UHGV virus genome: UHGV-1483955
Length of the DNA stretch: 64,000 nucleotides
Reading direction: 5' to 3' (one strand)
Origin: a virus
The position numbers were made by a program, and so were the translations under genes. Within the stretch, counting starts at the first letter, position 1. The number at the start of each line of letters is the position of its first letter. A model generated the notes under the pieces. It was not told the DNA's origin. It searched no databases and saw only the letters and a program-made list of their open reading frames with translations. Positions 20,023 to 22,334 of the stretch are shown here, piece after piece.

Positions 20023-20529
20023 TTGAGTATTTTCAATAAACACGCACACCAGGAACGTCCGTATATCGTCATAGTTGATATTGATGGAACAATATCAGAG
20101 GCAACTGAAGACAGACTGCATTTGCTTCCGCCACCAGGTAAAGGTGCATTAACAAAGGACTGGAACGAGTTTAATCTCGCCTGTGACACCGATACTCCCA
20201 TCACTCCAGTTATTGATATGGTGCGCCAGTTATTTAACGTTTACACGGTCTGGTTTGTAACCGGGCGCTGTGAGATCGCAAGGGATAAAACACGAGCCTG
20301 GCTGCGGAAGTACGTAACAAACGGGGCTGAGCCTTTGCTATCTATGCGTCCTGCCACCGATGACAGAAATGACGGCCCAGCAAAGATTGATCTCCTTAAG
20401 AAAATTGGTCTAAGTAAAATCGCGTTCGCGCTGGAAGATAAGATTGATGTGGCGCGTGTTTTCAGGAGGCACGGCGTGCTTACGTTAATGGTCAGGGAGT
20501 ATGAAAATGCGCTTCTTCATCAACAATGA
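20023..20529 (+). CDS. HAD-superfamily phosphatase-like protein
   Basis: IVIVDIDGTISE matches HAD motif I (DxDGT); TTG start with GAGGAGG SD. Confidence 0.55.
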   Translation: MSIFNKHAHQERPYIVIVDIDGTISEATEDRLHLLPPPGKGALTKDWNEFNLACDTDTPITPVIDMVRQLFNVYTVWFVTGRCEIARDKTRAWLRKYVTNGAEPLLSMRPATDDRNDGPAKIDLLKKIGLSKIAFALEDKIDVARVFRRHGVLTLMVREYENALLHQQ

Positions 20530-20545
20530 TTGCTCTAATAAATCT
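20529..20545 (+). promoter_or_regulatory. C1 operator-like 17-mer ATTGCTCTAATAAATCT
   Basis: 16/17 match overlapping HAD gene stop. Confidence 0.7.
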
Positions 20546-20627
20546 TGATTTTTAAAACGGAGAAAGTGAAAATAAAAACATGCCGCAAGGCGCGGCATGT
20601 ATCCAATCAATCACAGGAGCTGAAAAT

Positions 20628-20714
20628 ATGAACACGGCATTCAAAATCATTATGGCCGCGATCTATTTCTGGCTGTTCTCTATCACTTTTGGCGGCATCG
20701 TCGCACATGGGTAA
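20628..20714 (+). CDS. small hydrophobic peptide (28 aa, MNTAFKIIMAAIYFWLFSITFGGIVAHG)
   Basis: AGGAG SD 8 nt upstream; single predicted TM helix; preceded by 9-bp hairpin. Confidence 0.3.
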   Translation: MNTAFKIIMAAIYFWLFSITFGGIVAHG

Positions 20715-20723
20715 GGGGGATGC

Positions 20724-21452
20724 ATGAAAGGCGAAGTGAAAGAGCGCGGCATGATTTTCAACGATGAGATGGTCCGGGCCATCCTCGAAGGAAGGAAAAC
20801 GCAGACGCGGCGGATAATGAAAAATCAGCCTGCGGAAGTTGGTCCAGAAGCACCAGTGATGGTTAGAAAAATTGGTGCAGGTTTTCAGTGGTACGGGGCT
20901 GATGGTGTAAGCAGTGTTTTCAATTGCCCATTTGGTATCGTCGGCGATCGAATTTGGGTTCGTGAAACATGGGCGATATTAGGCAATGAGGATGGTTGCA
21001 GTGTGGACTGGAACGACAACCTTTGTCGTGGCGATGAGAAGAACGCAGCAAGGATTTATCGGGCCAGTTGCGAGCAAAAACCTGGTGATTACGGCTTATG
21101 GTCGATACCCGATGATGCCGACTGGAAACCTCACACTGTGAATGAAAAGTTTGATGGTGGGTGGCGTCCATCAATTCACATGCCGCGATGGGCATCACGC
21201 ATTCTGTTGGAAATTACCAACGTGCGCGTTGAACGGTTGAACGATATCAGCGAATGCGATGCAAGGGCTGAGGGCGTTCCGCCTGCTGGAAGTTTGCTTC
21301 CTGATCACCCGGGAACATTCCTTACTCCCAAGGGGGATTTCGCAATGGCCAAGGTTGCGTTCCAGCGCCTGTGGGAATCCATCTATGGTGAAGAAAGCTG
21401 GAACGCTAATCCCTGGGTGTGGGTAATCGAGTTTAAGCGCATTCAGGAATAA
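20724..21452 (+). CDS. ASCH-like domain protein
   Basis: N-terminal MIFNDEMVRAILEGRKTQTRR resembles ASCH/PUA-like N-termini. Confidence 0.5.
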   Translation: MKGEVKERGMIFNDEMVRAILEGRKTQTRRIMKNQPAEVGPEAPVMVRKIGAGFQWYGADGVSSVFNCPFGIVGDRIWVRETWAILGNEDGCSVDWNDNLCRGDEKNAARIYRASCEQKPGDYGLWSIPDDADWKPHTVNEKFDGGWRPSIHMPRWASRILLEITNVRVERLNDISECDARAEGVPPAGSLLPDHPGTFLTPKGDFAMAKVAFQRLWESIYGEESWNANPWVWVIEFKRIQE

Positions 21453-21455
21453 ACC

Positions 21456-22334
21456 GTGAGTATGCATCAAGTCGTCAGCTTTTCAGGTGGACGAACATCG
21501 GCTTATCTCGTTCATCTGATGGAAGCACAGCGAAAAGCTGGCGCTAGCGTCCATTTCATTTTTATGGATACCGGCTGTGAACATCCTCTGACGTATCGCT
21601 TTATTCGTGAGGTTGTGAAGTTCTGGAACGTACCGCTAACGGTGTTGCAGGTCGATATAAATCCAGAACTTGGGCAGCCAAATGGTTATACGGAATGGGA
21701 ACCAAAGGATATTCAGACGCGAATGCCGGTGCTTAAACCGTTTATGGACATGGTTAAAAAGTACGGTACGCCATACATCGGCGGCGCGTTCTGTACCGAC
21801 AGGCTAAAACTCACCCCTTTCACGAAATATTGCGATGACCATTTTGGGCGAGGGAATTACATCACATGGCTCGGTATTCGTGCGGACGAACCCCGTAGGC
21901 TGAAACCGAAACCGGGCGTCCGGTATCTTGCCGAACTGTCAGATTTTGATAAGTCGGATGTTATCCGGTGGTGGCGAAAACAACCTTTTGATTTGCAAAT
22001 CCCGGAGCACCTCGGGAACTGTGTTTTTTGCATCAAAAAGTCAACGCAAAAGCTGGGGCTTGCATGTAAAGACGAACCAGGTCTGATGCGGGTTTTTAAT
22101 GAACTGGTTACAGGCAAACACGTCAGGGATGGTCATCGCAGAACAGGTAAAGACGTTATGTACCGTGGCCACCTGACGCTTGACGGGATTGCCAGAATGT
22201 ATGCCGACAGTGACTACAGAAATTTGTATCAGGCGATGGTGCTGGCCAAGCGGTTTGATACTGGTTCGTGTTCCGAATCATGTGAAATCTGGGGTGACCA
22301 ATTGGAGTTGAAATTCGAAGAGGTAGTGGAATGA
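21456..22334 (+). CDS. PAPS reductase-like PP-loop ATP pyrophosphatase family protein
   Basis: VVSFSGGRTSAYL PP-loop (SGGxxS) near N-terminus. Confidence 0.7.
   Translation: MSMHQVVSFSGGRTSAYLVHLMEAQRKAGASVHFIFMDTGCEHPLTYRFIREVVKFWNVPLTVLQVDINPELGQPNGYTEWEPKDIQTRMPVLKPFMDMVKKYGTPYIGGAFCTDRLKLTPFTKYCDDHFGRGNYITWLGIRADEPRRLKPKPGVRYLAELSDFDKSDVIRWWRKQPFDLQIPEHLGNCVFCIKKSTQKLGLACKDEPGLMRVFNELVTGKHVRDGHRRTGKDVMYRGHLTLDGIARMYADSDYRNLYQAMVLAKRFDTGSCSESCEIWGDQLELKFEEVVE

Follow-up and report, generated by a model that had tools for sequence, protein, structure and literature searches.

The pap-Op88-pmgT-ninC segment of a P1-type plasmid prophage: known accessory genes with predicted roles in nucleic-acid handling

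Results

Genes and features at the locus

This study concerns the segment at positions 20023-22334 of a 64,000-nucleotide stretch of the virus genome UHGV-1483955, hereafter the window. The segment encodes the HAD-type phosphatase Pap, the ASCH-fold protein PmgT and the PP-loop protein NinC, and it carries a predicted operator of the C1 repressor together with a short open reading frame (ORF). Its features are as follows.

20023..20529, plus strand: pap, encoding a 168-aa stand-alone phosphatase of the HAD superfamily (polynucleotide kinase/phosphatase type) with 97% amino acid identity to P1 Pap
20529..20545, plus strand: predicted C1 repressor operator Op88/OpmgT, matching the consensus at 16/17 positions and located by P1 annotation
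20628..20714, plus strand: 28-aa hydrophobic ORF (MNTAFKIIMAAIYFWLFSITFGGIVAHG) with an AGGAG Shine-Dalgarno sequence upstream, absent from the P1 annotation
20724..21452, plus strand: pmgT, a 242-aa protein with an ASCH fold, predicted to be of the YqfB (GK[T/S]R) type, in which residues 83-157 form an insertion of ~75 aa
21456..22334, plus strand: ninC, encoding a PP-loop protein of the ATP-pyrophosphatase type within the PAPS-reductase superfamily; length 290-292 aa, likely start at ATG 21462

An initial annotation, made from the sequence alone, had listed five features here, namely a HAD ORF, a C1 operator, a 28-aa ORF, an ASCH-like protein and a PP-loop protein; all five lie where it had placed them, beyond what chance would give. 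Its domain calls were also right, being borne out by PF25109 for the HAD protein, by Foldseek matches to ASCH structures and the YqfB octapeptide for the ASCH-like protein, and by PF01507 and the SFSGGRTS motif for the PP-loop protein. Additionally, Pfam, PHROG and fold evidence places all three proteins in families acting on nucleic acids or nucleosides. The genes themselves are already known, pap and pmgT from phage P1 and ninC from lambda, and so are their families (HAD-PNKP, YqfB-type ASCH and PP-loop).

The region is a P1-type segment that reference P1 retains only in part

The region is the pap/Op88/pmgT segment of a P1-type (Punavirus) plasmid prophage. Window positions 19900-23500 are 100% identical to the Escherichia coli plasmid NZ_CP067401.1, and hundreds of P1-like plasmids also match. 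In blastn, phage P1 79664-85182 is colinear with window 15900-21418 at 99% identity, and across this stretch the P1 record names the genes ppp, pmgQ, pmgR, pmgS, pap and pmgT. The pap - Op88/OpmgT - pmgT region of P1 (NC_005856, 83787-85417) has the same gene order, operator position and leader as the window. Unlike reference P1, however, the window has kept the 242-aa PmgT intact, together with the genes that follow it over 6.84 kb, among them ninC; these fall in the following segment.

21419..28258, plus strand: 6.84-kb segment missing from reference P1, identified by blastn against P1 and by protein comparisons

This segment contains the last pmgT codons and ninC, three genes of 67, 79 and 226 aa, several Ead/Ea22-like genes, and the first (5′) half of the ORF at 27990-28640. 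In reference P1, the annotated PmgT is a 309-aa chimera in which residues 1-232 of the intact protein are fused to an unrelated out-of-frame tail, and it therefore lacks the last conserved beta-strand of the fold. P1 PmgU is a truncated remnant as well, corresponding to the C-terminal half (aa 104 onward) of the window ORF 27990-28640. By these sequence comparisons, the reference (laboratory) P1 looks like a deletion derivative at the equivalent of 21419-28258 (positions 5519-5894 of our P1 locus, L001), which appears not to have been recognised before this analysis, and its pmgT may therefore be defective. The window segment is still joined to the lambdoid early-region accessory block, starting with ninC, that reference P1 has lost. 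Given the apparent deletion, natural P1-like plasmids rather than laboratory P1 would be the proper material for tests of pmgT.

The C1 operator follows pap and precedes pmgT and ninC

The operator at 20529-20545 (ATTGCTCTAATAAATCT) fits the 17-bp asymmetric consensus ATTGCTCTAATAAATTT at all but one position; its first base is the last base of the pap stop codon, and it sits where P1 annotates OpmgT (formerly Op88). C1 operator-like sites are far in excess in the whole window, with 15 observed against 0.24 expected from shuffled sequences. The P1 record also predicts two sigma-70 promoters for pmgT, at about 20530-20573 in window coordinates, which OpmgT overlaps. Because the operator lies 3′ of pap, pap is outside its control, and only pmgT and the genes downstream of it are controllable; from the P1 annotation, pap would sit in a different transcription unit, upstream of Op88. 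Several further elements belong to this layout.

18388-18404 (plus strand) and 18437-18453 (minus strand): two C1 operator-like sites 5′ of pmgR, with 3 mismatches each; P1 has OpmgRa/OpmgRb at the corresponding place
19970..19998, plus strand: strong terminator-like hairpin with an 11-bp stem and then the T-run TTTTTCGTCC, located after the pmgS stop codon and ahead of pap
20578..20600, no strand assigned: perfect GC-rich hairpin in the predicted pmgT leader (5′ end of the transcript), terminator-like (stem plus T-run) on the minus strand

The pair of sites at 18388-18453, and not Op88, could be the operators able to govern a pmgR-pmgS(-pap) unit. The hairpin at 19970-19998 ends 25 nt before the pap start codon, and the P1 record holds no terminator feature there. 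An Rfam search of 19800-22600 gave as its sole match a sub-threshold GcvB on the minus strand (E 0.14; 20.3 bits, where the gathering score is 42), taken here to be a chance match.

Based on the P1 annotation, C1 bound at 20529-20545 would shut off the promoter reading into the 28-aa ORF, pmgT, ninC and the genes beyond. Under such repression, the products of the 28-aa ORF, pmgT and ninC would be made early after infection or induction and would be absent in the lysogen, a timing that could be compatible with counter-defence or host-takeover roles.

PmgT is predicted to be a YqfB-type ASCH protein

Searches of PmgT in Pfam, NCBIfam and the PDB sequences gave nothing significant. An AlphaFold model built with 33 relatives has a confident core with the PUA-like beta-barrel of the ASCH fold, and the top solved structures retrieved with it by Foldseek are all ASCH proteins. 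In hhalign, ILEGRKTQTRR of PmgT pairs with ILAGRKTITIR of YqfB, so that within the octapeptide G-x-K-x-x-T/S-x-R the residues G23-R-K25-T-Q-T28-R-R30 are aligned to YqfB G19-R-K21-T-I-T24-I-R26, and K25, T28 and R30 fall on K21, T24 and R26. Across 46 PmgT relatives of 39-65% identity, K25, T28, R29, R30, E183 and G184 are invariant and the insertion is variable over residues 83-147; E183 lies in a DA-x-AEG helix that resembles the HAEQEN of YqfB.

The aligned YqfB residues are those on which its activity depends: the K21A, T24A and R26A mutants are inactive, and E74A, which removes the acid of the Thr-Lys-Glu triad, is down 100- to 1000-fold. In a 2026 preprint that sorts ASCH proteins by this octapeptide, the GK[T/S]R group is counted among the YqfB-type amidohydrolases, and 19/19 ASCH proteins tested there are reported to remove N4-acetylcytidine (ac4C) from tRNA. 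The conserved octapeptide and the ASCH fold matches thus point to PmgT being a YqfB-type ASCH protein with an apparently complete catalytic motif, an assignment that is new here. As such an amidohydrolase, PmgT would use Lys25, Thr28, Glu183 and Arg30 to deacylate N4-acylated cytosine, whether free or within RNA.

PmgT also differs from E. coli YqfB, the N4-acetylcytidine amidohydrolase (PDB 9kyf). It has 242 aa against 103 aa, adding the ~75-residue insertion (83-157) and an extra C-terminal helical segment; D179 stands where YqfB has His70; and it is phage-borne, with a substrate that is a predicted one. The PmgT family is large. When 1.84 billion representative sequences, each standing for a cluster at 50% identity, were searched with a profile, 51,253 of them matched at E <= 1e-3 and 17,190 at E <= 1e-30. 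The family has no Pfam or NCBIfam model and is listed in PHROGs as of 'unknown function' (phrog_874). It is spread over phages of many phyla, with full-length members in phages of Pseudomonas, Myxococcus, Microcystis, Salinibacter, Roseburia, Rhizobium and others.

NinC is a PP-loop protein that leans towards SspD and DndC

The ninC reading frame likely starts at ATG 21462, because homologues open with M-x-x-V-V-S-F. NinC shares 80% amino acid identity with lambda Nin290 over residues 3-287 (98% of the length), and the two fall in the same PHROG (phrog_424; E 4e-93 for the window protein). The genes differ in setting: lambda ninC, which is non-essential, lies in the nin region, whereas the window gene lies in a P1-type plasmid prophage, 3′ of pmgT and behind a predicted C1-controlled promoter. 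Its closest DNA relatives are the 'NinC' copies of Stx2 phages (92.6% identical), which are found there in the early-left (ea) region near recT.

The PP-loop of NinC, SFSGGRTS, is canonical, with S8, S10, G11, G12, R13 and S15 invariant in 40 relatives; D38-T-G, K118, R142, D144, E145, R148 and the cysteines 113, 126, 189, 192 and 276 are likewise invariant, and Cys272 is conserved in at least 90% of them. The C-terminus reads GSCSESCE. Pfam PF01507 (PAPS_reduct) matches residues 6-72 only (E 2.8e-9, 37.7 bits). With the AlphaFold2 model (mean predicted local distance difference test, pLDDT, 87.6), Foldseek placed CysH PAPS/APS reductases at the top, then GMP synthetase, TtuA and LarE, with probabilities of 0.96-1.0 and ~180 aligned residues. 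The CysH equivalog NF002537 scores 21.9 bits, below its cut-off of 154. In the PADLOC defence library, the top match is SspD (E 1.8e-13, 48.8 bits; residues 5-148 against profile positions 2-121 of 277), followed by the weaker BrxP and DndC. A full-length SspD or DndC match was not obtained, and the DndC model TIGR03183 gave 17.8 bits against a cut-off of 290.4.

CysH enzymes carry a C-terminal catalytic Cys in an ECGLH-type motif and have a degenerate P-loop that does not serve ATP. The low CysH score, the short Pfam span, the canonical PP-loop and the GSCSESCE end therefore indicate that NinC is a true PP-loop protein and not a true PAPS reductase, and that it is closer to SspD/DndC than to CysH; the failed CysH tests and this leaning appear to be new observations for NinC. 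Assignment to sulfate assimilation, which had been set beforehand as the outcome that would speak against a modification role, was not what the CysH model returned.

In Vibrio phage 44E38.1, Erwinia and other genomes, relatives 51-55% identical to NinC carry a Dam-type DNA adenine methyltransferase (PF05869) as their C-terminal fusion partner; in the Vibrio phage protein, named 'Dam methyltransferase with PAPS reductase domain', the N-terminal domain has 55% identity to NinC. Another variant of the family (P0131) has a DUF551 N-terminus.

Like SspD and DndC, NinC combines the canonical PP-loop with conserved cysteines. Unlike them, it is carried by a phage and not in a defence island, and SspD/DndC have partner genes for a desulfurase, an ATPase and DNA binding, none of which is near NinC. 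With its intact PP-loop, NinC could use ATP for the adenylation of a substrate, in the manner of DndC and SspD, and it may interfere with or mimic sulfur-based DNA marking, through which the phage would escape Dnd/Ssp-type restriction. The idea of restriction evasion or counter-defence finds indirect support for this protein in the SspD match, in the methyltransferase fusion of Vibrio phage 44E38.1 and in two papers citing Piel et al. 2022 for a phage PAPS-reductase gene that reportedly counters Dnd. The Dnd/phosphorothioation review by Rakesh et al. contains nothing on phage NinC.

Pap corresponds to the phosphatase half of polynucleotide kinase/phosphatase

Pap contains motif I of HAD phosphatases, VDIDGT (D19-x-D21-G-T23, DxDxT, with the nucleophile Asp), and matches Pfam HAD_PNKP PF25109 (E 7e-12, 46 bits, cut-off 27.6) and phrog_415 'polynucleotide kinase' (E 1e-56). 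Residues 8-159 align to positions 156-292 of the 295 in phrog_505, that is to the C-terminal phosphatase part only; the N-terminal P-loop kinase domain was not found in the 168 aa or in this alignment, and Pap is not a bifunctional Pnkp. In the PDB search, the top natural protein is the RNA-repair enzyme Pnkp1 (4xrp, E 4e-4), the list also holding three de novo designed TIM-barrel proteins, two above Pnkp1 and one below. Pap thus resembles the phosphatase domain of T4-type Pnkp in its DxDGT nucleophile motif and HAD_PNKP match, but differs from it in lacking the kinase domain and a nearby ligase partner and in being limited to P1-like elements in the sampled loci. By family membership and conserved residues, Pap would strip 3′-phosphates from broken polynucleotide ends, like the phosphatase half of T4 Pnkp.

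pap, pmgT and ninC are independent and dispensable

To follow the linkage of the three genes, 96 loci encoding PmgT relatives (54 of them non-P1) and 80 loci encoding close NinC relatives were gathered. The pap gene is restricted to P1-like loci and occurs in 0/54 non-P1 pmgT loci, of which six have ninC directly downstream and 48 have no ninC. Among the 80 close ninC loci, a pmgT-family gene ends 6 nt upstream in 12 and no pmgT lies upstream in 65. The 12 pmgT-ninC loci carry PmgT alleles of 45-100% identity, and the junction alignment shows almost no differences among any of them over the last ~45 nt of pmgT, the spacer and the start of ninC. Such a near-identical junction across divergent alleles indicates a single inherited pmgT-ninC junction, not a repeated association, so that repeated adjacency as a sign of functional coupling was ruled out. 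In lambdoid prophages, PmgT relatives are encoded among Ead/Ea22-like genes in the ea accessory region, with the integrase gene ~1.4 kb away.

Among the PLSDB plasmids, pap was found in 654, the window pmgT allele in 404 and ninC in 74, the last being ~11% of the pap count. Many P1 relatives, e.g. vB_EcoM-813R1, have an internal ninC deletion of ~790 bp (window 21525-22313), which retains the first ~23 and last ~7 codons and leads directly into the 67-aa gene; the deleted form is seen at positions 4553-4635 of locus L002 and in many IMG/VR loci (e.g. L020, L025-L033). On this sequence evidence, ninC is ancestral to the deletion-bearing P1 lineage, having been lost repeatedly or spread in deleted form. 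CRISPR interference (CRISPRi) work has shown that neither pap nor pmgT of P1 nor ninC of lambda is essential. Therefore, from the co-occurrence counts, the ninC deletions and the CRISPRi dispensability, pap, pmgT and ninC are independent, dispensable accessory genes in a common variable region and not an obligate pathway.

These results bear on the initial annotation, which had placed all three genes under the C1 operator as one modification module. The predicted control by C1 applies to pmgT and ninC, 3′ of the operator, and fails for pap, which precedes it. A three-gene module under one operator is contradicted by this order, by the hairpin between pmgS and pap and by the confinement of pap to P1-like loci. 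Nor is there a fixed module, in view of the plasmid counts, of the many ninC loci without pmgT and non-P1 pmgT loci without ninC, and of the frequent ninC deletion.

Discussion

Based on the findings in this work, the best explanation of the region as a whole, which we consider probable though well short of certain, is that it holds known P1 and lambda accessory genes with roles in nucleic-acid handling, that pmgT and ninC form an early C1-controlled group, and that the genes act independently of one another. We infer the activities of Pap, PmgT and NinC from family membership and conserved residues. The result is a correct reading of known accessory genes and not a new system. Lambda ninC and P1 pmgT were sequenced decades ago without an assigned function, and each now has a concrete biochemical prediction. 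Confirmation of these predictions would establish that phages encode enzymes erasing acyl marks from RNA or DNA, and it would correct the common 'PAPS reductase' label on phage genes, which is often taken to indicate an auxiliary gene of sulfur metabolism.

Several observations weigh against this explanation or parts of it. For PmgT, the model has a mean pLDDT of 64.7 and residues 83-157 are unmodelled; the protein stays below the Pfam ASCH (PF04266) threshold, with weak matches in 17/46 relatives (best E 0.0017); and the equivalence of E183 with YqfB E74 follows from the position of the C-terminal helix and not from a tool-made alignment. For NinC, the alignments to SspD, DndC and CysH cover the N-terminal half only, the last ~100 residues match nothing solved, and no DndA/D/E- or SspA/B/C-like partner genes are present among the neighbours (pmgT and the 67-, 79- and 226-aa genes). 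One of the two studies citing Piel et al. 2022 saw no influence of the phage PAPS-reductase gene connected with Dnd in the vibriophages that it examined itself. As to control and independence, a simple consensus promoter scan recovered no promoter at the 20529-20545 operator, where the P1 record predicts two, and the distance of 3-9 nt between the pmgT stop and the ninC start may permit some functional coupling.

Other explanations of the gene set differ mainly in how closely the genes are thought to work together. A functional pair of PmgT and NinC, for example one as the writer of a base modification and the other as its eraser or proof-reader, with pap unrelated, would account for the 12/80 close ninC loci with a pmgT-family gene 6 nt upstream and PmgT alleles of 45-100% identity, for the 6/54 non-P1 pmgT loci with ninC directly downstream and for the possibility of translational coupling. 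We regard such a pair as unlikely, because the adjacency goes back to one inherited junction reshuffled by recombination, 65/80 ninC loci have no pmgT, relatives covering the full length of pmgT, found in phages of Pseudomonas, Myxococcus and Salinibacter among others, have no reported ninC neighbour, and many P1 relatives keep pmgT while ninC is deleted. Extending the partnership to a single three-enzyme pathway, in which Pap, PmgT and NinC would act one after the other to put a single modification onto phage DNA or host tRNA or to take it off, draws on the adjacency of the genes on the same strand, their membership in nucleic-acid or nucleoside enzyme families and the tight pmgT-ninC spacing. 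Its chance is slim, however, as pap stands upstream of the operator and after a terminator-like hairpin, is found in 0/54 non-P1 pmgT loci and is accompanied by ninC in ~11% of the plasmids that bear it (74 vs 654), and Stx2 phages have ninC without pap or pmgT. It is also conceivable, although we think it improbable, that PmgT and NinC form an early counter-defence cassette that edits nucleic-acid marks, with PmgT as an N4-acylcytosine eraser and NinC as a partner-free, DndC/SspD-like ATP pyrophosphatase acting as writer, blocker or mimic of a sulfur mark in DNA. Within such a cassette, PmgT would target e.g. ac4C on host tRNA or an acyl mark from a defence system, and the PmgT family would then represent a widespread class of viral RNA/DNA de-modification enzymes.

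Two further alternatives concern the roles of the individual proteins. That NinC is an auxiliary metabolic enzyme, a true PAPS reductase boosting host sulfate assimilation in infection, would agree with the PAPS_reduct domain match, with CysH enzymes as its nearest solved structures and with the name used in many genome annotations. We consider this very improbable, since the CysH equivalog scores 21.9 bits against 154 and PF01507 covers residues 6-72 only, the PP-loop is a canonical SxSGGxxS and the C-terminus is GSCSESCE instead of the ECGLH of CysH, SspD outscores PAPS_reduct (48.8 against 37.7 bits), and relatives are fused to a DNA methyltransferase. Morphogenetic roles are what the 'pmg' (putative morphogenetic) names of the P1 annotation imply, but they deserve scarcely any credence: CRISPRi knock-down of pap, pmgT, pmgU and pmgV leaves P1 plating unreduced, the PmgT of reference P1 itself lacks the last conserved strand of its fold, and the folds are enzyme-like rather than structural. 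Independent accessory genes, with early expression predicted for pmgT and ninC, remain our preferred reading of the region.

Neighbouring genes and the 28-aa ORF

Downstream of ninC, the window continues with small genes and with further lambdoid content.

22331..22766, plus strand: two small genes, of 67 aa (phrog_1226) and 79 aa, which accompany ninC in Stx2 phages and P1-like elements

The genes 3′ of ninC at 22727-23407, 23395-24270, 24554-25288, 25285-25875 and 25877-26839 are labelled in PLSDB as hypothetical or 'ead/Ea22-like'. Those within 22727-26839 have short motifs in common, e.g. PATDAFL-EIRA, and the stretch is lambdoid early-left-region content inside a P1-type plasmid, having only short patches in common with Stx2 phage PA2. 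Pfam, NCBIfam and PADLOC gave no match for the 67-, 79- and 226-aa genes, the 28-aa ORF or PmgT.

The stop codon of the 28-aa ORF falls within the pmgT ribosome-binding site. Its protein is 100% conserved in 48 of the 49 loci carrying it; 4 sites vary in its 87 nt, three of them synonymous, and 14 vary in the 82 nt upstream. A type I toxin-antitoxin formed by this ORF and the minus-strand terminator-like hairpin was considered, no evidence of an antisense RNA was found, and the reading was not pursued further. The 84 bp of the ORF are also found, at 98.8% identity, in many plasmids outside a P1 context. In the sole IncF plasmid inspected (locus L181, 3001-3084), the copy lies just 3′ of a type I hsdR gene and beside IS1, and the P1 record mentions homologous sequences next to the hsd loci of EcoDXXI and R124.

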